64,000 bases of DNA from Candidatus Bathyarchaeota archaeon (GCA_963833575.1 CAWHXY010000006.1:128001-192000); one strand, 5' to 3'. Shown: positions 937-22,743, counted from the stretch's first letter. Notes: generated by a model from the sequence alone, not told the origin. Translations and numbers: made by a program.

Positions 937-1643
937 TTAAGAGTTTACATCCTGTGGAACAAACCGCCGCAGATTCTTAAGCGACTGCAGTTTCTCTTTC
1001 TCGCCGATTTTTGCTTCCTGCACTGACTGTTTTAGGATTTGAATAGATTCATCCATTGCTTTGCGGTCAACAGGATAAGGAACACCATCTTTGCCTCCAT
1101 ATGCAAAACTAAATTTTACAGGGTCCTCCCAACTTGGCTTTTCGCCGTAAACTAACTCGGCGACAAGAGCTAAACCCCTAACTGTCGCGGGTCCAACACC
1201 TTTGATACTCAAAAGCTCCTCGTAATTGTTTGGTTGGAACTCGTAAACTCGGCTTAGCGTATCCCAATTAATGTTACGCGGCATGTTTAGCGTGTTTAAG
1301 GTTTGTTGCCATGGGTCATCGGTCTTGGGTAGCCAATTTTGAAGTGAATATTGGTTTAGCGGTTTTGTGGTTGATTGGATCAGGTTCATGAGTTTGCGTG
1401 TGGGTTCCTTTGCCAAGTCTACGCTGGCTTTTCTGGCAGCTTCGCTATCTTTTGCTACCATGTTCAGGGCTGTTTCCCGTTTTACGTTTCCAACTATTGC
1501 ATTGTGTGGTTCAACAGCAAAGTCCGCTACATTATCCGACAGCCAATGATACCGTCTTGCCGAACGGTCATTTTCACTCATACCCTGCTGAATCACAGCC
1601 CACTGCTCATCCCTAGTTACTAAGAAAGCGTGGTGATAAAGCT
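937..1643 (-). pseudogene. C-terminal fragment of a DUF763 family gene interrupted by element E1
   Basis: LYHHAF...WAVIQQGM...ARRYHW...GVGPATVRGLALVAELVYG...FSFAYGGKDGVPYPVD are DUF763 motifs. The first 29 aa of track ORF 937..1728 come from E1 sequence. Confidence 0.88.
1638..1643 (+). repeat. E1 attL core (AAAGCT)
   Basis: Identical to 5956-5961 and lies exactly at the DUF763 breakpoint. Confidence 0.85.
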
Positions 1644-1882
1644 CAAAGCATGTCAGTAGTGATATCTCCCGCAATATTTCCCCTTTTTTTGATAAGCACG
1701 AGGCAAATAGGAAACTCCGTTTTGCCATAGCATCTCTCCAGGGAAAGGTAGAGAGCTCGATCTGGAAAAGACGCCTTCAAACGGCTCTAATTATCAGGGA
1801 TGAGCTCCTGGAGCATGGTTACAAGTGGCAAGCCGATAGGATCGATAACTGGATCCATAGGCTCCAGGAAAAGGAGGTTTGA
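1640..1882 (+). CDS. E1 ORF1, 3' part (start codon supplied by the other end of the element after circularisation)
   Basis: Open frame ...DKHEANRKLRFAIASLQGKVESSIWKRRLQTALIIRDELLEHGYKWQADRIDNWIHRLQEKEV*, homologous to E2 ORF 18004..18282. It has no start codon and is bounded by a TAA at 1637-1639 in the integrated state. Confidence 0.8.
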   Translation, partial: SSKHVSSDISRNISPFFDKHEANRKLRFAIASLQGKVESSIWKRRLQTALIIRDELLEHGYKWQADRIDNWIHRLQEKEV

Positions 1883-1885
1883 GCT

Positions 1886-2215
1886 CTGGAGCATAGAATT
1901 AGAGTTTTTTGCCCTGCCTGTATCGATTTGATACCCGATTTTTGGCATGGATCTAGTCAGGATTGGTATAAAGCTCTCGAGGCCGTACATGGCCTTCCTT
2001 TCCCTCAGTGGTTACTTACTGCTTTGGAGCACGAATTTGAGCATGGTTACGACAGATCACACCTGACACAGATCAGCGATTCAGTCAAACACAAACGATA
2101 TCCAGCTAAGTTTCCATGGAGGCTTAAGCTGAAGGATCCAGGGGTTCCCGGGCCTGGAAAAGTCTTGCAGGCCGAAGGCCTGACCTCTGAGAGAAGAGAG
2201 GAGGGCTCTTTCTAG
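1886..2215 (+). CDS. E1 ORF2, hypothetical (track start 1928; possible CTG start at 1886 adds a CPAC motif)
   Basis: AGGAGG at 1872-1877 precedes an in-frame CTG. The C-terminus LQAEGLTSERREEGSF is shared with E2 ORF 18282..18473. Confidence 0.5.
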   Translation: MEHRIRVFCPACIDLIPDFWHGSSQDWYKALEAVHGLPFPQWLLTALEHEFEHGYDRSHLTQISDSVKHKRYPAKFPWRLKLKDPGVPGPGKVLQAEGLTSERREEGSF

Positions 2216-3190
2216 TTGGCAGCCAAATACATGCTGGAGCAAGAAGGCAGCTTCACTTTCATGAGGCCTGACTCGATCGAGTGCAGGATCGTAACCTGCA
2301 AACATTATGATGCCTGCAAAAGCGTTGGCGAAAAGTCGGGTATCCTGCCTAAAGCGAAGTCGATTTTAGAGGTTTTGGGCCTCGATTGGCAACTGCCAGG
2401 TCATGGCAAGGCCTATGATGATTGTGGATCCTGGAGGTACAGGGGTTGCTTAGACGTCTATTCTCACGTGCAGAATGAGCTGGATCAGAGCATCAAGGAA
2501 AAGATCTATGTTGAGTGGTATCATCGCAGCTGTGTGAGGGCCGAGTGTCCGATCTGCTATGAGAAGTGGGCTGGGAAGGAGGCTGCTAAGATCGAGCATC
2601 GTCTAAAGTACTTCTGGAAATATGGCAAGGTTATCCATGTGACCGTTTCACCGTCAGAAAAAGACGCTGTTAACATGCCTTTTGAGAAATTGATCGCAAA
2701 AATGTATCGGATAGCTAAACAGAGAGGTTTGAAAGGTGGTTCTTGTATTTGGCATCCCTGGAGAGAGCACGATAATGGATCATGGTATTTCTCGCCCCAT
2801 TTCCACGTTCTAGGCTTTGGATGGGTGCGAAACACTAAAGAGGGCTTTGAAAAGGATGGTTGGTTAGTGAAAAATATCCAGGATGGCAAGAAGGAAAGAT
2901 CAGTTTTCCGCACGGCCATGTATCAACTAAGCCATTGTGGGATCAGCAAAAATCATAGGCCAGTTACCTGGTTTGGAGTTTGCAGTCCAGCTGCTAAGGA
3001 AAAAGTCAACGTGCCTCCAATGGAGAAAGAGAAACACTTGTGTCCAGCTTGCGGAGCTGAGCTAGTACAACTTAGGTATTTTGGCTTGGAGGATCAGCTG
3101 CCAGATCGAGAGGAGAACGCATGTGCCTGGCTAGATCCTGGAGAGAACTGGGCAGAGTTCCAGCCCTCCAGGTATGGAGATGAAGGGTAA
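2216..3190 (+). CDS. rep: Rolling-circle replication initiator (HUH endonuclease Rep) with Zn-binding motifs
   Basis: Motif I-like VIHVTVSP, HUH motif PHFHVLG, motif III-like YQLSH tyrosine, and Cys motifs CVRAECPIC and CPACG. Confidence 0.82.
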   Translation: MAAKYMLEQEGSFTFMRPDSIECRIVTCKHYDACKSVGEKSGILPKAKSILEVLGLDWQLPGHGKAYDDCGSWRYRGCLDVYSHVQNELDQSIKEKIYVEWYHRSCVRAECPICYEKWAGKEAAKIEHRLKYFWKYGKVIHVTVSPSEKDAVNMPFEKLIAKMYRIAKQRGLKGGSCIWHPWREHDNGSWYFSPHFHVLGFGWVRNTKEGFEKDGWLVKNIQDGKKERSVFRTAMYQLSHCGISKNHRPVTWFGVCSPAAKEKVNVPPMEKEKHLCPACGAELVQLRYFGLEDQLPDREENACAWLDPGENWAEFQPSRYGDEG

Positions 3191-3351
3191 TGTTCAGAGT
3201 TCAGATTCGCCGAGGTAGTGGATCCAGGGCCAGGATCCAGATTAAGATCTGTGGTGATTGTGGTTTTTGGGTTGGCCGTTGCCTTTTAGGTGAGGGAAAC
3301 CGTTTTGCTGGATCTGAGTCATGTGGTAGATCTAAACCTAGGGAGCTGTGA
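3190..3351 (+). CDS. Small Cys-rich protein (53 aa, not in ORF track)
   Basis: ATG overlaps the Rep stop (TAATG). MFRVQIRRGSGSRARIQIKICGDCGFWVGRCLLGEGNRFAGSESCGRSKPREL. Conserved in E2 at 19646..19804. Confidence 0.75.
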   Translation: MFRVQIRRGSGSRARIQIKICGDCGFWVGRCLLGEGNRFAGSESCGRSKPREL

Positions 3352-3355
3352 GATA

Positions 3356-3652
3356 GTGGCCAGGGCACATGATTGTATCTTAACAGTTACTATTAGAAAG
3401 AGGCTGTTGAAAGAGATCAGAGATAAGCGGTTGTTGTCGTTGAATTTTCTTGAGAGATTGAGAACTCAGGAAGCGGATCCTGTGGATCTCAGCTGCTTTA
3501 AGTGTAGCCGAAAGGTTAGAGGTGGCTCATGGATCCATGTGATCAGAAGCTCCTATAGAGTGCGAATCTATCATCTCAAGTGTTTTGAGGGATCCTTTGT
3601 TGATGCTCACAGAAGTAACTGTGATCAAGCTTCTGGGAGGGTTGAAAACTAA
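3356..3652 (+). CDS. Zn-finger protein (CxxC...HxxC)
   Basis: GTG start at 3356 matches E2 MARATDCILT. Contains CFKC and YHLKC. Confidence 0.75.
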   Translation: MARAHDCILTVTIRKRLLKEIRDKRLLSLNFLERLRTQEADPVDLSCFKCSRKVRGGSWIHVIRSSYRVRIYHLKCFEGSFVDAHRSNCDQASGRVEN

Positions 3653-3653
3653 A

Positions 3654-3866
3654 ATGCCAAAAGGTGAAGGTACTGCTGGAGGCATCATGGAGATAATTAA
3701 GACTCCGTTGGGCATCATCATTTTGTTTATCATTATGTTGGTGCTAGCTGGCTTGAGTATTGCCTCAGCTATCTCAGGAGCCTTAACCGCTGCAGCTGTT
3801 AGCTCAGCTGGGTTGTTGGTTGTAGTTGTGCTCCTGGTAGTTGTCAAAGTATTAGGGAAATCTTAA
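3654..3866 (+). CDS. 70-aa hydrophobic helical-hairpin protein, candidate major capsid or pilin-like protein
   Basis: MPKGEGTAGGIMEIIKTPLGIIILFIIMLVLAGLSIASAISGALTAAAVSSAGLLVVVVLLVVVKVLGKS. Two hydrophobic segments and a basic C-terminus. Identical protein in E2 despite 10 synonymous substitutions. The capsid role is an inference. Confidence 0.65.
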   Translation: MPKGEGTAGGIMEIIKTPLGIIILFIIMLVLAGLSIASAISGALTAAAVSSAGLLVVVVLLVVVKVLGKS

Positions 3867-3870
3867 GCAG

Positions 3871-3891
3871 AAAGGCTCAGAATTGAGCTTT
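3871..3891 (+). terminator. Hairpin after the candidate capsid gene
   Basis: AAAGGCTCA-GAA-TTGAGCTTT imperfect inverted repeat followed by a pyrimidine-rich tract. Same sequence at 20316-20336. Confidence 0.45.
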
Positions 3892-4154
3892 ATTTCCTCA
3901 TTCTCCCTCATTTTTCCGTTAATTAACATCTTTTAGGCTCCAGGAGAGGGGTTTTTGACTCTCTTAGGGTAGTCAGTTTTGATCAGAAATTGGCCAAGTT
4001 TCTTCAATCTTTTGCGTACGTGAGAAATTTGGGCCCCTTTATTATTATATTATGTATATTAGGTAATCACAAAAAAAATAAATATTAAAAAATGCTTAGT
4101 AGAATTCAATTTGGGGTTGAATGTTGAAATGGAGCTCAGTTTGGTGGTATCTAA

Positions 4155-4436
4155 GTGAGAGAGTACAGTAATGGCTTCTCTGTTAAGCTAACAGATGAGG
4201 AGCAAGCAAGCTATGAGAGAGTTCTCAGTTATTATAAGGCCGTTGATCCTTCTCGATCAAAAGCTTTCAGGTTGTTGCTGAGGGCGCTGGAGTTGGAGAT
4301 CTCCAGGCAATCTCAGAAGGCCTATTGGAGTAACACCGAGTTTGATCCTCCCAGGGCTGAACCAAGCCATGACGTAACAATCAGTTCTGAGGAGGAGTTC
4401 CTGGAGAGAGAAGCAAAGGACACCTGGACTGAGTAG
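4155..4436 (+). CDS. Ribbon-helix-helix-like DNA-binding regulator
   Basis: N-terminal FSVKLTDEEQ strand-helix followed by SRSKAFRLLL, with an acidic tail. Identical protein in E2. Confidence 0.55.
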   Translation: MREYSNGFSVKLTDEEQASYERVLSYYKAVDPSRSKAFRLLLRALELEISRQSQKAYWSNTEFDPPRAEPSHDVTISSEEEFLEREAKDTWTE

Positions 4437-4439
4437 GGC

Positions 4440-4686
4440 AAAAGTAATATCCATAAAGGCGTTATTATTGATCAAGCAGCTGAGGCCAGCTGCATGGCTC
4501 CAGGAGGATTTAAGATCTTGAAACCGTCTTTTTCTTCCTTTTGGAGCCATCCAATTTTAACTATTTTTGTCAATTGTGAAATAGGTCTAAAATCGGACAT
4601 AGTGGGTAAAAAGTAATATCCGTTTGATGGGCTTTTGTGTCCATTTTGTTTATAAGTAAAAAGTAATATCCGTTTCATGGACTTTT
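4440..4686 (+). promoter_or_regulatory. Direct repeats upstream of the integrase (operator or iteron-like) around a TATA-like box
   Basis: AAAAGTAATATCC at 4440-4452. The longer GTAAAAAGTAATATCCGTTT(G/C)ATGG(G/A)CTTTT occurs at 4606 and 4656 (50-bp period) with TTTATAA between them. Confidence 0.6.
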
Positions 4687-4749
4687 CTAAAAACTGTAGA
4701 TGTTAAAAGCCTTGACTTTGAATAGTCCATCAAGGCTTCAAGATCTAAA

Positions 4750-5925
4750 ATGAGTGCTGATTTAGCTCAAATTTCAAGTTCAAGTAACAAAACCAGCTCA
4801 GCTCCTCAGTGTCCTAAGTGTGGTTTTCGTGTAGTTCTTGATGGCCATCGTTACTCCTGGGGCCAGGATATCCAGCTTTTCAAGTGCAAAAATAAGTCTT
4901 GTCGTTATAGGTTCTCAAACGGACATAGTAGTTCAAAAACTAATCCAAAGATAGTTAGATCTAACCAATTAGGCGTCAGATTAGAGGCGAAAAAATTGGT
5001 TTCTGCAACAGAAATAAAGACTGTTGTGGGAGATAAAAATGACAATCTGATCACGTACGCATGGCATGAGAAGAAACGTGGAATAGCTGATACAACCATC
5101 ACACATAGAGTTTTCCGTTTGACTGTTCTTATGAACAGAGGTGCTAACTTAGATGATCCAGAGAGCTTTCTATCGGTTTTGATGACTGAAAATTTTTCAG
5201 AGTCCTCAAAATTCCAGTATTTGCAAGCTTACCTGAGCTACGCCAAAGCGTTCAAAATTCCTTTTGAGAAGCCAAAAATCCACTATGAACCGAAAGTCCA
5301 GTACACGCCAAAGCCCTATGAGGTAGCAATCTTAATTCAAAATCTTGGTAAACAACAGAGAGCTTTAGTTCAAACGATGGCGACTACAGGTGCGAGAATT
5401 GGAGAAATGGCCAGGTTAGAATGGAGTGAAATAGATTCAGTAGGACAGATAGTGTATATCAACCATCCAGAGAAGGGCAGCAGAGCTAGAAAAATCCATG
5501 TGCCTGAGCAAACCATCAAATTCCTAGAAGGATTGCCAAAAACCTATGATCCTTACGTTTTCAACCCAAATAAGCGAACCTTACAAGCTACCTATGCCAG
5601 ATCCAGAGACTCTATCGCTAAAAGGCTTGATATGCCGATCCTCAAAAAAATCCATCATCACTCTTTCCGTCGATATTTTGCAGATCAGACCTACAAAAAA
5701 ACCCAATTTAACATCCGAAAAACACAGCTGCGAATGGGCCATAAACGATTGAGCTCTACAGAGAAATACTTTGACGATTTTGACGATGAAAACGTCACTT
5801 TTGAAACAGCTAGAGCTTACACAGTAGAGGACGCAGAGGAGCTGAGGCAACTGGGCTATGAGCTATATGATACTGGAATAGACGAGAACGGCAAAGCTGT
5901 GAAGTTGTACAGTAGGATGGCTTAG
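4750..5925 (+). CDS. int: Tyrosine integrase with N-terminal Zn ribbon (E1)
   Basis: CPKC..C..C N-terminus. Catalytic TGARIGE (R), KGS (K), HSFRR (HxxR), MGHK (H), EKYF (Y). Confidence 0.93.
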   Translation: MSADLAQISSSSNKTSSAPQCPKCGFRVVLDGHRYSWGQDIQLFKCKNKSCRYRFSNGHSSSKTNPKIVRSNQLGVRLEAKKLVSATEIKTVVGDKNDNLITYAWHEKKRGIADTTITHRVFRLTVLMNRGANLDDPESFLSVLMTENFSESSKFQYLQAYLSYAKAFKIPFEKPKIHYEPKVQYTPKPYEVAILIQNLGKQQRALVQTMATTGARIGEMARLEWSEIDSVGQIVYINHPEKGSRARKIHVPEQTIKFLEGLPKTYDPYVFNPNKRTLQATYARSRDSIAKRLDMPILKKIHHHSFRRYFADQTYKKTQFNIRKTQLRMGHKRLSSTEKYFDDFDDENVTFETARAYTVEDAEELRQLGYELYDTGIDENGKAVKLYSRMA

Positions 5926-5953
5926 ACATGGTAATAGCGAAAAAAACGTACAT

Positions 5954-6388
5954 TCAAAGCTGGTACCCCGCTTGAATAGCGGCGTTATCAACTTTTGCAG
6001 CCATTTTACTATTGTAAGTTAATTCGTTGATCTTTTCTTCAGAAAAACCGAATTTTGTGCCAGCCACTGCTAAGTCGTTTGGCGTTTTCTTTGAGGTTTT
6101 TCCTTTTCCGCCGCAGACCGCTATGCCGTGCTCTTTTGGTGATAGAGCGCTTTTGAGGATGCCTGTGACGACTGTTGTTACTCCTGAGCTGTGCCAATCG
6201 TAAGCTAAAACGCAGCCGAATGCTTGAAACCAATACGGGTCCGATAAACGTTGCATGAATTTGGATGTGCCCTGCTCTTCAATCATGATGTTTGCTATTT
6301 CTTTGGCTAATTTGCGCATTCGCACAGTTAGCCATGAAGGAGCTTTTCCGCCATGAAGAGGCAGGTTTGCAACGCCCGTTCTATACAT
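5954..6388 (-). pseudogene. N-terminal fragment of the DUF763 family gene interrupted by E1
   Basis: MYRTGVANLPLHGGKAPSWL...LSDPYWFQAFGCVLAYDWHSSGVTT...AKVDNAAIQAGYQL, then a TGA formed at the E1 junction. Confidence 0.9.
5956..5961 (+). repeat. E1 attR core (AAAGCT)
   Basis: Identical to 1638-1643 and lies at the end of the DUF763 N-terminal fragment. Confidence 0.85.
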
Positions 6389-6689
6389 TACTTTCACTAT
6401 CAGTATTCGCTCAAAGAATAATGAGGCATCCTGTTTTGAATGTTATTGAAACATTTACGGCAGTTTTCAACTATACAGAATGGAAAATGCAGGCTCACAG
6501 ATTTGAATAATTATCTGTAGGACGTAGATACGACTGCTTTAGCATCTAATTGTTAAATTCCACAGTTCTCTTGTTTGTACAATGCCTCATTTGTTTAAAC
6601 CCAATTGGTTATGTGTACAACTGTAGTTTCAGGTATCATTTAGAAAGGTTATGTCGATGTTTTGCCTATTAGTGTTTGAGCGATGAATA

Positions 6690-17891: not shown

Positions 17892-17907
17892 TAAGAAACG
17901 CTTATTA
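17892..17907 (+). repeat. E2 attL (TAAGAAACGCTTATTA)
   Basis: Identical to 22466-22481, with an internal dyad TAAG-aaacg-CTTA. Confidence 0.9.
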
Positions 17908-18003
17908 TCCAAATTTGGGTGACATCTCCCGCGCCAAACCCTCCCTTTCTTTTTCATTAATGTTCTGCTGTAGTCTTTTTGCTTACCTAAATTTTTCGGA
18001 GGT

Positions 18004-18282
18004 TTGTCCTTGAGCGGTAGCTGTGAACCTCTTTTTTCTGATTTTTACAACAAGGATTGGGCCAATCGAAAACTCCGTTTTGCGATCGCAACTCTTCAGG
18101 GAAAAATTGAGATCTCTATCTGGAAAAGACGCCTTCAAACGGCTCTAATTGCCAAGGATGAGCTCCTGGATCATGGTTACAAGTGGCAAGCCCAGAGGAT
18201 CGATAACTGGATCCATAGGCTCCAGGGCCAGGAAATTGCTAAGGATGAGGCCAGGATTCAGGGCCAGGAGGCCAGGAAATAA
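18004..18282 (+). CDS. E2 ORF1, hypothetical
   Basis: Homologous to the E1 frame at 1640-1882 (ANRKLRFAIA.LQGK...WIHRLQ). Confidence 0.75.
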   Translation: MSLSGSCEPLFSDFYNKDWANRKLRFAIATLQGKIEISIWKRRLQTALIAKDELLDHGYKWQAQRIDNWIHRLQGQEIAKDEARIQGQEARK

Positions 18283-18473
18283 TGAAGGATCCAATCTTTG
18301 GATCTGGCCAGTTAGATATCTGGCCCTGCAGGAGAGGATCTTGGCACCAGGAAAACAATTATTGGTTGATTGAGGCCTGGCCAGCAGCTGCTCAGGATCC
18401 AATAGTTTCCAGGCCCGGGAATTTACAGGCCGAAGGCCTGACCTCTGAGAGAAGAGAGGAGGGCTCTTTCTAA
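18282..18473 (+). CDS. E2 ORF2, hypothetical
   Basis: TAATG coupling to ORF1. Ends in the same LQAEGLTSERREEGSF as E1 ORF2. Confidence 0.55.
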   Translation: MKDPIFGSGQLDIWPCRRGSWHQENNYWLIEAWPAAAQDPIVSRPGNLQAEGLTSERREEGSF

Positions 18474-19424
18474 TTGGCAGCAAAATTTAGGCTGGAGCAA
18501 GAAGGCAGCTTCACTTTCATGAGGCCTGACTCGATCGAGTGTAGGATCGTTACCTGCAAGCATTATGAGGCCTGTAAAAGCGTTGGCGAAAAGTCGGGTA
18601 TCCTGCCTAAAGCGAAGTACGGTTTTGAGGAAATTGATTGGCAGTTACCAGGCCACGGCGAGAAGTATGATGATTGTGGGGATTGGCGGTATCGTGGCTG
18701 TCTTAACGTAGAAGCTCACGGCCAGAATGAGCTCGGTCAGGATGTTGAGGGAAAGATCTGGGTTGAGTGGTATCATCGGAATTGTGGCCGTGCAGAATGT
18801 CCTACTGATTATGAAAGATGGGCTGGGCTTGAAGCATCAAAAATCACGCATCGGTTGAAGTATTTTTGGAAGAGGGGAAAGGTGCTTCATATAACCATTT
18901 CTCCGAGTGAAAAGGACGCTTTAACATTGAGCTTTACCAAATTGAAGGCTAAAATGTACCGTGTTGCAAGGCTGAGGGGGATCAAGGGAGGCTGTGTAAT
19001 TTGGCATCCCTTCAGGGAAAATGATGATGGAACCTGGAGAGTATCTGGCCACTTCCATATCTTAGGGTTTGGGTGGGTTCGAAATGTCAGCCAGGGGTAC
19101 AAAAGTGATGGTTGGTTAGTGAAAAACATCCAGGACGGTCAGAAGGAAAGATCTGTTTTCAGGACGGCCATGTATCAGCTTAGCCACTGTGGTATAAGTA
19201 AAGGAACTCGTCCTGTGGCTTGGTTTGGAGTTTGCAGCTCAAAAATCAAAGTTCCAGAGATTGAGGAAGTTAAGCATCTATGTCCATGTTGCGGAGCTGA
19301 GCTAGTACAGCTTCGTTATTATGGAGATCCTGACGGTCTCCCAGATAAGACTGAAGAGAACGGTTCCTGGTTGGATTCTGGAGATTGGATCGAGAAAGAA
19401 ACAGTGAAATGGAGGAGAGATTAG
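18474..19424 (+). CDS. rep: Rolling-circle replication initiator (HUH endonuclease Rep)
   Basis: VLHITISP, GHFHILG (HUH), YQLSH, CGRAECP, CPCCG. Homolog of 2216..3190. Confidence 0.82.
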   Translation: MAAKFRLEQEGSFTFMRPDSIECRIVTCKHYEACKSVGEKSGILPKAKYGFEEIDWQLPGHGEKYDDCGDWRYRGCLNVEAHGQNELGQDVEGKIWVEWYHRNCGRAECPTDYERWAGLEASKITHRLKYFWKRGKVLHITISPSEKDALTLSFTKLKAKMYRVARLRGIKGGCVIWHPFRENDDGTWRVSGHFHILGFGWVRNVSQGYKSDGWLVKNIQDGQKERSVFRTAMYQLSHCGISKGTRPVAWFGVCSSKIKVPEIEEVKHLCPCCGAELVQLRYYGDPDGLPDKTEENGSWLDSGDWIEKETVKWRRD

Positions 19425-19425
19425 G

Positions 19426-19638
19426 ATGTCTAAACTAGGGAGAAAGATTTGTTGCATCTATAGAAAGGATGCTCGCTGTGTTAGACCATTCCAGGATTTT
19501 CAACGGTGTTTCTTCATTGGAAATCATGTTAGAGCTGGAGAACAATGTGATTTTGACGTTGGAGTATGTTTGTTGGTACCTGAAGCAATTAAAGCTCAAT
19601 ATCTCGCTATTTTAGAAAAAAATGGTTTTCATAGGTGA
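19426..19638 (+). CDS. E2-specific Cys-rich small protein
   Basis: Packed 1 nt after Rep, six Cys residues, absent from E1. Confidence 0.55.
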   Translation: MSKLGRKICCIYRKDARCVRPFQDFQRCFFIGNHVRAGEQCDFDVGVCLLVPEAIKAQYLAILEKNGFHR

Positions 19639-19645
19639 TGATTAG

Positions 19646-19804
19646 ATGTTCGTTAGCATTGAGATTTTAGAGAGTTTCAGGGCCAGGATCCAGGTTAAGA
19701 TCTGTGGTGAATGTCGGTTCTGGGTTGGCCGTTGCCTTTTAGGTGAGGGGAACCGTTTTGCCGGATCTGAGGCTTGTAATAGATCTAGGAGTCGAGATGT
19801 GTAA
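19646..19804 (+). CDS. Small Cys-rich protein (52 aa, not in ORF track)
   Basis: MFVSIEILESFRARIQVKICGECRFWVGRCLLGEGNRFAGSEACNRSRSRDV. Homolog of 3190..3351. Its stop overlaps the next ATG. Confidence 0.75.
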   Translation: MFVSIEILESFRARIQVKICGECRFWVGRCLLGEGNRFAGSEACNRSRSRDV

Positions 19805-20097
19805 TGGCTAGGGCTACAGATTGTATCTTAACAGGTACTAATCAAAAGAGGCTGTTGCGAGAGATTAGACAAAAGCGGTTGCTACCTCTGAATTTTGTTG
19901 AGAGGGTCAGGGATAAGGTTGTGGATCTAGATATCAGCTGTGAGATGTGTGGCCGAAGGATTAGAAAGGGCTCCAGGATCCATGTGATAAGGAGCTCAAT
20001 TAAAGTCAGGATTTATCATCTGTGTTGTTTTGAGGGCTCTTTTATTCATGCTCACAGAAGTAACTGTGATCAAGCTTCTGGGAGGGTTGAAAACTAA
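19804..20097 (+). CDS. Zn-finger protein (CxxC...HxxC)
   Basis: CEMC and YHLCC. Homolog of 3356..3652. Confidence 0.75.
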   Translation: MARATDCILTGTNQKRLLREIRQKRLLPLNFVERVRDKVVDLDISCEMCGRRIRKGSRIHVIRSSIKVRIYHLCCFEGSFIHAHRSNCDQASGRVEN

Positions 20098-20098
20098 A

Positions 20099-20311
20099 AT
20101 GCCAAAAGGTGAAGGTACTGCTGGAGGCATCATGGAGATAATTAAGACTCCGCTGGGCATCATCATTTTGTTTATCATTATGTTGGTGCTAGCTGGACTC
20201 TCGATTGCCTCAGCTATCTCAGGAGCCTTAACCGCTGCAGCTGTCAGTTCAGCTGGGCTGTTGGTTGTAGTTGTGCTCCTGGTAGTTGTCAAAGTATTAG
20301 GGAAATCTTAA
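20099..20311 (+). CDS. 70-aa hydrophobic helical-hairpin protein, candidate major capsid or pilin-like protein
   Basis: Protein identical to 3654..3866. Confidence 0.65.
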   Translation: MPKGEGTAGGIMEIIKTPLGIIILFIIMLVLAGLSIASAISGALTAAAVSSAGLLVVVVLLVVVKVLGKS

Positions 20312-20599
20312 GCAGAAAGGCTCAGAATTGAGCTTTATTTCCTCATTCTCCCTCATTTTTCCGTTAATTAACATCTTTTGAGCTCCAGGAGAGGGGTTTT
20401 TGACTCTCTTAGGGTGGTCAGTTTTGATCGGAAAATGGCCAAGTTTCTTCAATCTTTTGCGTACGTGAGAAATTTGGGCCCCTTTATTATTATATTATGT
20501 ATATTAGGTAATCACAAAAAAAATAAATATTAAAAAATGCTTAGTAGAATTCAATTTGGGGTTGAATGTTGAAATGGAGCTCAGTTTGGTGGTATCTAA

Positions 20600-20881
20600 G
20601 TGAGAGAGTACAGTAATGGCTTCTCTGTTAAGCTAACAGATGAGGAGCAAGCAAGCTATGAGAGAGTTCTCAGTTATTATAAGGCCGTTGATCCTTCTCG
20701 ATCAAAAGCTTTCAGGTTGTTGCTGAGGGCGCTGGAGTTGGAGATCTCCAGGCAATCTCAGAAGGCCTATTGGAGTAACACCGAGTTTGATCCTCCCAGG
20801 GCTGAACCAAGCCATGACGTAACAATCAGTTCTGAGGAGGAGTTCCTGGAGAGAGAAGCAAAGGACACCTGGACTGAGTAG
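20600..20881 (+). CDS. Ribbon-helix-helix-like regulator
   Basis: Protein identical to 4155..4436. Confidence 0.55.
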   Translation: MREYSNGFSVKLTDEEQASYERVLSYYKAVDPSRSKAFRLLLRALELEISRQSQKAYWSNTEFDPPRAEPSHDVTISSEEEFLEREAKDTWTE

Positions 20882-20884
20882 GGC

Positions 20885-21131
20885 AAAAGTAATATCCATA
20901 AAGGCGTTATTATTGATCAAGCAGCTGAGGCTAGCTGCATGGCTCCAGGAGGATTTAAGATCTTGAAACCGTCTTTTTCTTCCTTTTGGAGCCATCCAAT
21001 TTTAACTATTTTTGTCAATTGTGAAATAGGTCTAAAATCGGACATAGTGGGTAAAAAGTAATATCCGTTTGATGGGCTTTTGTGTCCATTTTGTTTATAA
21101 GTAAAAAGTAATATCCGTTTCATGGACTTTT
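20885..21131 (+). promoter_or_regulatory. AAAAGTAATATCC direct repeats upstream of the integrase
   Basis: Same three repeats as 4440-4686. Confidence 0.6.
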
Positions 21132-21195
21132 CTAAAAACTGTAGATGTTAAGAGCCTTGACGTTGAATAAGTCCTTCAAGGTTTCAAGATTTAAA

Positions 21196-22482
21196 ATGAG
21201 TGCTGATTTAGCTCAAATTTCAAGTTCAAGTAACAAAACCAGCTCAGCTCCTCAGTGTCCTGAGTGTAGTTCTCATGAAGTAGTTCTTGATGGCCATCGT
21301 TACTCCTGGGGCCAGGATATTCAGCTTTTCAGATGTAAATCATGTAAGCATAGGTTCTCAAACGGACATAACAGTTCAAAAACTAATCAAAATACTATTA
21401 GATCTAACCAATTAGGCGCTAAATTAGAGGCGAAAAAATTGGTCGTGCTGCCACATAGAAAACATGTCGGCACGGGAGAAGTCACTGCAGAACATGAAGC
21501 ATTGCTTAGAGTTTTTGAAGGTTGGCTACGGAAAGAAGGCTACAACAAAAACTGTTATCCAAACAACGTAAAGACATTGCTATACCTTGGGGCCAATCTT
21601 TTAGATCCAGAGGATGTCAAAGCAAAAATCGCTGATCACAACGTCAAAAACGGAATGAAAATGCAACTTTGCTACAGTTATGAAGCGTTTCTACGGATGA
21701 ACAAAATGACTTGGACGCGACCAAAAAATGGAAAAGGCTACAAACAAGACGAGATTGATCCGTGGATTCCACTTGAGGTAGAGCTGGATCAACTGATTGC
21801 AGCTGCACATAGCAAGCGGATGGCAGTTTTTCTACGGACTCTTAAGGAAACTTTCACTGATCCAAGTGAGGCACTACAGATTGAGAGCCATGACATTGCA
21901 GACAATTCAGTAACGATCAGACATCCTGTTAAGAAACATCGTCCACGAACGCTAGAAGTTTCACCTCAGCTGATTGCAGATCTAAATAGCCTCTCACATG
22001 ATTCAGATCGGATTTTTGATTGCAGATACAGCACTATGATCAGCGGTTTTATTGCGTTGCGTAGGCGTGTCGCTCAAAGAACCCAAAACGACAGAATAAA
22101 CTACATCGAGTTACGGAGCTACAGACATTGGGCTGGAACAATGATTGCAGAAATGTCAAACGGTAATCCAATGTCAGTAATGAAGCTGCTAGGCTTAAGA
22201 CGCATTGAAAATGCTATGAAATACGTTAACATCTGGAAATTGAGCTTCAAAACTGAGACTGAATGGCAATACATGGAAGTTACAACACCTGAAGAACTAA
22301 AGATTGCCTTGCTTGGCGGCTACCAACATGTCATCGACAAGTTTGGAGCTTCATGGTTTAGAAGACCTAAAAGAATTGCCATTGCTATTACACCGATTAG
22401 CCAGCGACCAGATGAACCACAATGTCCCCAGATAGAAACCCCGATTAATAAACGCGAACCTGCATTAAGAAACGCTTATTAA
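21196..22482 (+). CDS. int: Tyrosine-recombinase-family integrase (E2) with non-canonical catalytic residues
   Basis: Shares the MSADLAQ...LEAKKLV N-terminus with the E1 integrase. Core reads KETFTDPSEAL, LRSYRHW, LLGLRRIENAMKY. Its 3' end overlaps attR. Confidence 0.82.
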   Translation: MSADLAQISSSSNKTSSAPQCPECSSHEVVLDGHRYSWGQDIQLFRCKSCKHRFSNGHNSSKTNQNTIRSNQLGAKLEAKKLVVLPHRKHVGTGEVTAEHEALLRVFEGWLRKEGYNKNCYPNNVKTLLYLGANLLDPEDVKAKIADHNVKNGMKMQLCYSYEAFLRMNKMTWTRPKNGKGYKQDEIDPWIPLEVELDQLIAAAHSKRMAVFLRTLKETFTDPSEALQIESHDIADNSVTIRHPVKKHRPRTLEVSPQLIADLNSLSHDSDRIFDCRYSTMISGFIALRRRVAQRTQNDRINYIELRSYRHWAGTMIAEMSNGNPMSVMKLLGLRRIENAMKYVNIWKLSFKTETEWQYMEVTTPEELKIALLGGYQHVIDKFGASWFRRPKRIAIAITPISQRPDEPQCPQIETPINKREPALRNAY

Positions 22483-22743
22483 ATGACGCGGATTAAACCT
22501 TAGAAGCCAGAGGTTTTGGGCGAGTAGATCAGTCTGGCATGATCGCCACGTTGGCATCGTGGAGGTCCCGGGTTCAAATCCCGGCTCGTCCACCAAACAA
22601 TTATTCGTGTTTACGCCTCGAAGGCGACTTATTGCCAATTTAAGGGCATTTTCACAGATTTTTGGCGCATTTAACCCAATTTCATAAGCTAAATTCGCTA
22701 ATTCTGGATTTAATTCAATCGTTGCACTGACTTGTGTTGTCAT
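22465..22743 (-). CDS. CcdA-like/RHH antitoxin-type ORF whose C-terminus runs antisense into the tRNA
   Basis: ATIELNPELANLAYEIGLNAPKICENALKLAISRL resembles CcdA-family proteins. The tail LVDEPGFEPG is the tRNA read antisense. Confidence 0.5.
   Translation of the reverse strand: MTTQVSATIELNPELANLAYEIGLNAPKICENALKLAISRLRGVNTNNCLVDEPGFEPGTSTMPTWRSCQTDLLAQNLWLLRFNPRHLISVS
22466..22483 (+). promoter_or_regulatory. E2 attR coinciding with the probable BRE/TATA promoter of tRNA-Ala
   Basis: Purine-rich AAGAAACG followed by CTTATTAAA, about 35 bp upstream of the mature tRNA start at 22518. Confidence 0.7.
22518..22595 (+). tRNA. tRNA-Ala(GGC), CCA encoded
   Basis: Acceptor stem GGGCGAG/CTCGTCC with G3:U70, anticodon arm CCACG-TTGGCAT-CGTGG, T loop GGTTCAAATCC, 3' ACCA. 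Confidence 0.96.

Follow-up and report, generated by a model that had tools for sequence, protein, structure and literature searches.

Integration of a plasmid-like element into a DUF763 gene of Bathyarchaeia probably separates a plasmid backbone gene from its start

Known systems and the E1 locus

Archaeal tyrosine integrases are divided into suicidal ones, in which the attachment site of the element (attP) lies inside the integrase gene, and classical ones, in which attP lies outside genes, while chromosomal attachment sites (attB) in protein genes have also been noted; an attP inside another gene of the element finds no mention in the available part of the review that gives this division (PMC8371274). 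Here we describe E1, a plasmid-like element integrated in the DUF763 gene of a Candidatus Bathyarchaeota archaeon (GCA_963833575.1, CAWHXY010000006.1:128001-192000; this whole stretch of 64,000 nucleotides (nt) is called the window, and positions are counted from its first letter). The attP of E1 lies within an open reading frame (ORF) of the element, ORF1, which on the circle follows the integrase gene int and precedes a probable replication initiator gene, Rep. From the sequence we consider it likely that ORF1 is beheaded when the element integrates and that the connection between int and the replication module of the element is broken.

The closest archaeal systems are the suicidal integrases of SSV1, pTN3 and pT26-2, which like E1 have attP in a gene of the element itself that is whole only on the circle (available parts of PMC8371274 and PMC7253208). 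In E1, however, int stays whole and the split gene is the next one downstream, a plasmid backbone gene, which would lose only its start and 11-15 codons of a leader predicted to be disordered. The domain given for suicidal integrases is PF16795 (PMC8371274, as far as available), whereas the Pfam scan of the E1 integrase matched PF00589 and did not list PF16795. The hosts also differ, being mesophilic Bathyarchaeia for the E1-type elements and hyperthermophiles for the SSV-type.

Three further systems share single features with E1. In mycobacteriophage BPs, attP lies within the repressor gene, the integrated and free forms encode different products, and the integration state is itself a regulatory signal: integration replaces the 3' end, which strips a degradation tag from the protein and leaves it active in the prophage (PMC4557955, available in part). 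E1 likewise has its attP within ORF1, directly after int on the circle, and ORF1 might be a regulator. The polarity is opposite, because the 5' end is removed and the gene should be silent when integrated, and both the gene family and the archaeal hosts are different. A C-terminal shortening with tag removal of the BPs type was considered for E1 and set aside, since ORF1 loses its N-terminal start and 11-15 codons. In Tn916, the transfer genes are expressed only once circularisation puts them behind xis-int (PMC5812530, available in part). E1 would similarly have a gene block that is promoterless in the integrated form; in Tn916 only transcription crosses the joint, whereas in E1 the reading frame itself would cross it, with translational contact to int, and the block is a replication module in E1 but a conjugation module in Tn916. 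Integrated elements of Thaumarchaeota have att sites down to 8 base pairs (bp), 14 of 68 lie in protein genes at 3'-distal positions, and one carries a rolling-circle Rep (available part of PMC6563490). E1 is similar to them in being small, integrase-bearing and provided with a short att site. As compared to the 3'-distal insertions, it interrupts DUF763 after less than half of its length, at codon 147 of 380; the overlap is 6 bp, and the element brings no replacement end.

Interruption of a host gene in mid-ORF, with precise excision that restores the gene, is reportedly found in the Listeria comK prophage and in the Bacillus skin and SPbeta elements. Excision and regulation are said to have been demonstrated in these active-lysogeny systems, whereas E1 is known by its sequence potential alone and its frame restoration is in silico. 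Our literature search on genes rebuilt across attP turned up only bacterial and phage papers, and the search of the Bathyarchaeia literature, with supplementary tables outside its reach and PMC10848311 included as partly available, turned up viruses but no plasmids, nor this arrangement. E1 joins these known ideas in a new way: its integrase stays alive, its backbone gene is beheaded, and its host target lies in the middle of a gene.

The interrupted DUF763 gene and the ORF1 frame

Within the first 6.4 kb of the window, a host gene on the minus strand is cut by a plus-strand block of 4318 bp. The features on which the argument rests are as follows.

1644-5961, all genes on plus strand: E1, integrated plasmid-like element of 4318 bp, bounded by orthologue comparison
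937-1643 (stop 937-939), minus strand: C-terminal half of the host DUF763 gene, ending at the attL core
1638-1643, no strand: attL copy, 6-bp core AAAGCT, the same core as at the G124 element in the same host site
1640-1882, plus strand: 3' part of ORF1, codons 12-90 and stop, with no start codon when integrated
1659-1672, plus strand: near-palindromic motif GTGATATCTCCCGC, 16 nt inside the left end of E1, family pattern GWGAHATCTCCCGC
1928-2215, plus strand: orf95, whose stop abuts the Rep start with 0-nt spacing
2216-3190, plus strand: Rep, probable HUH rolling-circle replication initiator of 324 amino acids (aa), TTG start, assigned from motif, ESM Atlas and weak fold matches
4750-5925 (stop 5923-5925), plus strand: int, tyrosine integrase of 391 aa with PF00589, whole when integrated
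5928-5961, plus strand: 5' part of ORF1, an ATG, 10 more codons and 1 nt, ending with the core
5956-5961, no strand: attR copy, 6-bp core AAAGCT, 30 nt past the int stop
5954-6397, minus strand: N-terminal half of the host DUF763 gene, ending ...GYQL, then the junction stop

The Pfam scan matched the N-terminal half (5957-6397, minus strand) to positions 1-139 of PF05559 (E 1.5e-60) and the C-terminal half (940-1641, minus strand) to positions 139-319 (E 1.7e-64); the two abut at position 139 and together cover the full-length profile. Deletion of 1644-5961 in silico gave a single open DUF763 frame that encodes 380 aa (377 aa when counted from its first ATG), with the insertion point at codon 147. 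This virtual empty site was aligned with the intact orthologues of 11 same-genus loci and equalled them in 11 of 11, residue for residue and without a gap around ...AIQAGYQLYHHAF.... The 6-bp repeat by itself is not above chance, exact repeats of 7-8 bp also being found between the flanks, and the boundaries of E1 are therefore established by the orthologue comparison. An alternative core, TCAAAGC (1643-1649 and 5954-5960), was rejected because joining at it gives a frameshift and a stop in DUF763. The original prediction had held that joining the AAAGCT copies restores a DUF763 of 377 aa and that neither half contains further stops; its coordinates and frames were borne out, and neither a stop nor a frameshift interrupts either half, in the E1 host as well as in the G124 species described below. 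These data support the view that excision at AAAGCT would restore DUF763 exactly. The match to the C-terminal half is present in 33 of 41 related genomes, a count that includes the window's own genome (G000). No second DUF763 copy was found in that genome. DUF763 contains an HhH motif, and the literature search on it turned up a single unrelated paper.

The integrated ORF1 frame (1640-1882) has no in-frame ATG, GTG or TTG and is preceded by in-frame TGA and TAA codons. At the other end of the element, the ATG at 5928 begins 2 nt past the int stop. On the circle it would read 34 nt to the end of the core and continue in frame to give an ORF1 product of 90 aa, just as first claimed in both position and frame. 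The leader of E1 alone is mildly unlikely to be open (0.13 of shuffles were open) and could be luck, and relatives were therefore examined.

The relatives came from an ORF1 search of the 119 other genomes of the genus and from a scan with the integrase alignment; ORF1 homologues were found in three of the 119, and the scan added L026. One of the genomes, G124, belongs to another species; its element, though diverged, lies between the DUF763 codons that also flank E1 and shares the AAAGCT core (identity to E1 69% for Int, 45% for ORF1 and 28% for Rep). Its counterpart of 5928-5961 differs at 5 nt, three of which are third codon positions by hand count. The integrases of G075, G093 and L026 are about 40% identical to that of E1. 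These three elements (loci L020 in G075, L021 in G093, and L026 on JBEKTQ010000016) sit at a second, intergenic target with an AAAACA-type core, about 55 nt, as counted by hand, before the start of an SMC_N/AAA_15 ATPase gene; the target is A+T-rich and may be the promoter of that gene.

In the circles of all five elements (E1, G124, G075, G093 and L026), which are in silico reconstructions, a canonical ORF1 start lies at or within 6 nt of the int stop. The gap is 2 nt in E1; start and stop overlap as ATGA in G075 and L026 and as TAATG in G093; and G124 has either a GTGA overlap or an ATG 6 nt past the stop. The leaders are 33, 39, 37, 41 and 42 codons long. They contain no stop in the ORF1 frame against 1-7 in each other frame, and they are open despite about half of the bases being changed among the five; the shuffle probability of an open leader is 0.056-0.132 per element. 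Because the five lengths all differ by whole codons, the leader is read as coding sequence. The integrated copies of the E1-type elements, on the other hand, have no canonical start before the conserved ORF1 core. On these comparative data, the ORF1 frame across the reconstructed attP is confirmed as far more than chance, and the assembly of ORF1 by excision, with a start that would be coupled to the int stop, is supported and recurs in five of five such elements.

Proteins from metagenomes agree with the reconstructions. P0065 and P0027, which are contiguous in nature, match the reconstructed ORF1 products over the junction position, with alignments that begin at residues 1-5, and P0009 and P0007 also cross it. 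The contigs encoding them measure 1.8 kb (P0065), 3.9 kb (P0027), 6.6 kb (P0009) and 18 kb (P0007). A class-wide search gave weak ORF1 matches in fragmentary contexts in four more genomes of another family. Beyond attR of the G093 element, on the reverse strand at about L021:3002-3252, we also observed a relic of about 45 nt of the left end of another element, in which int, leader start, core and palindromic motif follow one another in actual DNA and the reading frame that begins at the ATG is open through the motif; this looks like the trace of a tandem integration.

The palindromic pattern GWGAHATCTCCCGC sits 10-20 nt inside the left ends of the elements and is a candidate arm site of the integrase. 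It has two matches in the window, at the left ends of E1 and E2 (a sister element described below), against 0 expected. In the set of loci it is confined to the left ends of integrase-type elements, and none of the free circular plasmids has it. The integrases of E1 and E2 share an N-terminal zinc-ribbon part, which an arm-site function of the motif would fit. In E2 the motif lies where stops block reading in the ORF1 frame. Conservation of leader residues is therefore not evidence of coding, as the same motif is present in E2 but unread in that frame, and the evidence for a coding leader consists only of its openness, the in-frame insertions and deletions and the position of the start.

The plasmid family, its enzymes and the sister element E2

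ORF1 belongs to a family that is mostly found apart from integrases. A search of 5.8 billion proteins gave 38 homologues, and a profile search of 1.84 billion representatives gave 198 clusters; the N-terminus is variable, and the conserved core that follows it measures about 55 aa (WANRKLRFAI...RIDNWIHRLQ). The AlphaFold (AF2) model of ORF1 has a three-helix-bundle core (predicted local distance difference test score, pLDDT, 83.8) and a disordered leader. ORF1 had no match in Pfam, NCBIfam or PHROGs and none among viral contigs. Its fold matched nothing in the PDB by Foldseek, the best ESM Atlas score was 0.79, and VIA-align gave only generic or designed three-helix bundles (Z up to 8.6), which is below the meaningful level for helical proteins.

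The scan of metagenomes gave 40 ORF1 loci, of which 37 have Rep-like genes and one has an integrase. Among them are 18 contigs of 1.9-3.9 kb (overlap included) with terminal overlaps of 100-127 nt, which carry ORF1 and Rep without an integrase match and which, because of the overlaps, are taken to be small circles. A canonical ORF1 start of its own lies before the core in 37 of the 39 assessable metagenome loci, all 18 circles included, and the two startless loci are copies of the integrated G075-type element. Whether ORF1 homologues start downstream of the junction, a point raised by the original prediction, depends on the type of element: they do so in integrase-less plasmids and in E2-type elements and do not in E1-type elements. 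In 20 of 35 family members, G075, G093 and G124 among them, the first Rep start lies between -11 and +4 nt from the ORF1 stop. The locus survey and these contacts between ORF1 and Rep indicate that the ORF1-Rep pair is the backbone of a plasmid family from which the E1-type elements derive as integrative forms. Its smallest circles, L042 and L043, measure 1879 nt including a 127-nt overlap, or about 1.75 kb net, and seemingly hold only ORF1 and Rep; the sequence suggests that the pair is a minimal replicon. Together with the decapitation of ORF1, we think it probable that E1 is an integrative derivative of this small rolling-circle-type plasmid family of Bathyarchaeia.

The product of int matched PF00589 over residues 199-344 with 61.7 bits (cut-off 27.1) and also the phrog_1 integrase (E 8e-27). 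An alignment of four relatives shows no variation at residues R216, K242, H304, R307, H331 and Y340, and we take them to have the roles of the R-K-H-R-H/W-Y catalytic residues of the consensus. The gene lies wholly inside the element and is unsplit in E1, G124, G075, G093 and L026, which rules out a suicidal integrase of the SSV type, with int split by attP. By its sequence, the E1 integrase is a classical, non-suicidal archaeal tyrosine integrase. Among viral contigs only two distant relatives were matched (22-26% identity), and the relatives found in genomes at L027 and L029, which carry no ORF1 homologue, were left out of the comparison.

Rep is probably an HUH rolling-circle initiator, a reading to which several weak but concordant lines point. 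The HUH metal-binding motif H195-F196-H197 and Y236, a candidate for the catalytic tyrosine downstream of it, are invariant in 18 homologues. The ESM Atlas features of E1 Rep point to Rep_1 clusters (scores 0.95-0.96). VIA-align matched SIRV1 ORF119, Vientovirus Rep, Helitron transposase and RepB of pMV158 at Z 4.0-4.5, with RNA recognition motif (RRM) folds intermixed, and the Rep of G075 matched PF23343 with E 0.006, below the cut-off. No match was obtained by Foldseek at E<=0.001 or against PDB sequences, and the sequence searches drew a blank among phages and gave one weak match among plasmids, to a hypothetical protein of Halobacterium with 26% identity.

E1 consists, in order, of the startless ORF1 fragment, orf95, Rep, three small ORFs and int, and all genes other than ORF1 are intact. 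A conserved tail, ...LTSEREREEASF, closes the ORF preceding Rep; it is part of ORF1 in most relatives but is carried by the separate orf95 in E1 and by an unlisted short frame in E2. The C-terminal tail of orf95 is homologous to the one ending many ORF1 homologues (...REREEASF). The remaining features of E1 and those of E2 are listed here.

3290-3652, plus strand: small Cys-rich ORF of 120 aa, 70% identical to the E2 copy
3585-3866, plus strand: small hydrophobic, membrane-like ORF, first 51 aa 94% identical to the E2 copy (tblastn)
4155-4436, plus strand: orf93, 100% identical between E1 and E2
4441-4671, plus strand: three copies of AAAGTAATATCC in the spacer upstream of int, identical repeats in E2
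17892-22481, plus strand: E2, sister element with a 445-aa integrase and flanks of 16-bp direct repeats
18010-18282, plus strand: E2 copy of ORF1, own TTG start after GGAGGT, unsplit by integration

The Cys-rich ORF had no family match in Pfam or PHROGs-type scans. The copies of AAAGTAATATCC begin at 4441, 4610 and 4660 in E1 and at 20886, 21055 and 21105 in E2; as repeats before int they are possibly an operator or iterons.

E1 and E2 are the only elements of this family in the 2.75-Mb assembly and lie 16 kb apart in direct orientation. The E2 integrase is a different one, with 34-35% identity to that of E1 (tblastn). The 16-bp repeat of E2 (17892-17907 and 22466-22481) takes in the final codons of int together with part of its stop codon, and E2 ends 36 nt upstream of the 5' end of tRNA-Ala(GGC) (22518-22595), not in its 3' end. 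The ORF1 of E2 starts about 100 nt inside the element, with stops between the left end and the start. That this homologue is intact stood as originally predicted. The 92 aa first given for it would begin at TTG 18004, but TTG 18010, which gives 90 aa and is where P0004, a public protein, begins, is the likelier start. In their middle the two elements share some 1.8 kb (E1 3225-5010, E2 19678-21455) that is 92% identical, the remainder being 74-89% identical or unrelated, and such mosaics suggest recent recombination between the two co-resident elements.

Replication in the integrated state and alternative explanations

In the mechanism that we propose, a plasmid backbone of ORF1 followed by Rep would have gained a classical tyrosine integrase, giving the E1-type elements. 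Their attP lies inside the 5' leader of ORF1: the leader begins directly at the int stop, with the start codon next to it or overlapping it, and recombination would take place 11-15 codons further on. On the circle, int, ORF1, orf95 (in E1) and Rep would form a co-directional chain with stop/start contacts and would presumably be expressed as such. In the integrated sequence this chain is cut, with int whole at the right end and ORF1 at the left end startless and behind in-frame stops. There the integrated ORF1 has no sense gene upstream, and any transcription from int would be lost. ORF1 and the coupled Rep module would then be made only from the excised circle, and rolling-circle replication would be off in the chromosome and licensed again by excision. 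As to the host, the integrase type of E1 and G124 would target a conserved stretch in the middle of the DUF763 coding sequence via the 6-bp overlap, inactivating the gene without loss of sequence, so that it would be whole again after precise excision. Judging from the gene orientations, the promoter of the host DUF763 gene would read antisense into the 3' end of int as long as E1 is integrated. A further step may be taken tentatively: the integration state might be a hard-wired replication licence, with the int-ORF1-Rep chain assembled across attP on excision and taken apart on integration, and the event in E1 and G124 might also turn DUF763 on and off, which would make a reversible switch of two genes in an archaeon.

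Several points weigh against the proposal that integration silences ORF1 and the replication module. The 2.75-Mb assembly contained no attP junction, no attB junction and no free or tandem copy. An internal promoter could exist at the left end of E1. The five elements are relatives and not independent draws, and the most conserved leader residues, G-D/E-I-S-R, derive partly from the DNA motif GWGAHATCTCCCGC. In E1, 333 nt with orf95 lie between ORF1 and Rep, and direct coupling is less evident there. E1 Rep had no Pfam match, and with fold matches only up to Z 4.5 its assignment is not secured; the replication role of ORF1 is read from its position, with no recognisable fold relative.

One alternative places the function with the host. 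The insertion in DUF763 could be a host regulatory switch of the active-lysogeny type, in which regulated excision restores the gene and re-integration silences it. The ratio of non-synonymous to synonymous substitution rates (dN/dS) between split halves and intact orthologues was 0.05-0.09, like that between intact genes (0.06-0.10), and the halves are unbroken in two species. Restoration would be exact, int is intact, and the site was hit twice: the DUF763 sequences of G000 and G124 are each closer to the intact orthologue L005 than to each other, and that the two are not nearest DUF763 relatives argues for independent insertions at one DUF763 site. But dS is saturated (>1) and the terminal branches are unresolved, so that the age of the insertions is not readable from dN/dS and recent one-way insertions look identical. 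Indeed, the intact halves, the intact int and the two hits at one site are equally compatible with a reversible switch, as the original prediction had suggested, and with recent one-way insertions of a site-specific parasite. Elements bearing ORF1 occur in only 4 of 120 genus genomes (G000 included), of which only two are in DUF763, and the assembly holds no excised or empty-site molecules. The intergenic site of the related integrases before the SMC_N ATPase gene also fits a parasite that chooses conserved sequence. We regard a host switch as unlikely.

Somewhat less likely still is that ORF1 is an accessory of the integrase, an integration or directionality factor, in which case the split would set the direction of recombination as in the case of the SSV-type int. 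ORF1 would be translationally joined to int on the circle, and its leader overlies attP and the candidate arm motif, as this reading would have it. The constant partner of ORF1 is, on the contrary, Rep, present at 37 of the 40 metagenome loci as compared to Int at one; ORF1 has its own start on the 18 circular contigs (1.9-3.9 kb) that lack an integrase match, and in 20 of 35 members the ORF1 stop is in contact with the start of Rep.

We find it improbable that the open frame across attP is a by-product of DNA bound by the integrase, with ORF1 either decaying or using a non-canonical start and its expression unaffected by integration. The palindromic leader motif is a DNA-level feature common to E2, where it is non-coding; the openness of the E1 leader alone has a chance of about 0.13; in-frame ATC, ATT and ATA codons occur within the integrated fragment; and the leader, disordered in the AF2 model, may be functionless as a protein. 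Against these stand the five of five frames that are open over 33-42 codons at five lengths while other frames have 1-7 stops, the ORF1 start that always touches the int stop, the contiguous full-length proteins in public assemblies and the intactness of all other E1 genes. The E2-type elements, which have an ORF1 start of their own, do carry stops in the equivalent stretch.

Highly improbable, finally, is that DUF763 still works as two separately made polypeptides and that the insertion is neutral for the host: the N-terminal half stops right at the junction in both species and the C-terminal frame in E1 runs into the element to an ATG 29 codons upstream (ORF 937-1728, minus strand), but in G124 the sole start in the corresponding stretch, which has little likeness to that of E1, is a TTG 14 codons before the host part begins, and the split falls inside one Pfam domain. 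The ORF at 937-1728, which encodes 263 aa antisense to ORF1, is probably a chance frame.

The loss of the ORF1 start on integration, which remains our preferred explanation, bears on how such elements may persist. Work on ICEBs1 is said to have shown that an active rolling-circle replicon stuck in the chromosome is harmful. The arrangement in E1 hints at how such a replicon might, by simple means, reside in the chromosome without doing damage. Next to the suicidal and the classical integrases, it would be a third archaeal arrangement, in which the integrase is kept alive and a neighbouring backbone gene is beheaded. Bathyarchaeia are abundant and uncultured, and the plasmid family defined for them here comprises 198 ORF1 clusters and 18 contigs that are circular, besides at least five derivatives of the integrative kind. 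The very short cores of these integrases could interest those who seek genetic tools for Bathyarchaeia, and the recurrent mid-gene hit draws attention to DUF763, a conserved gene of unknown function.

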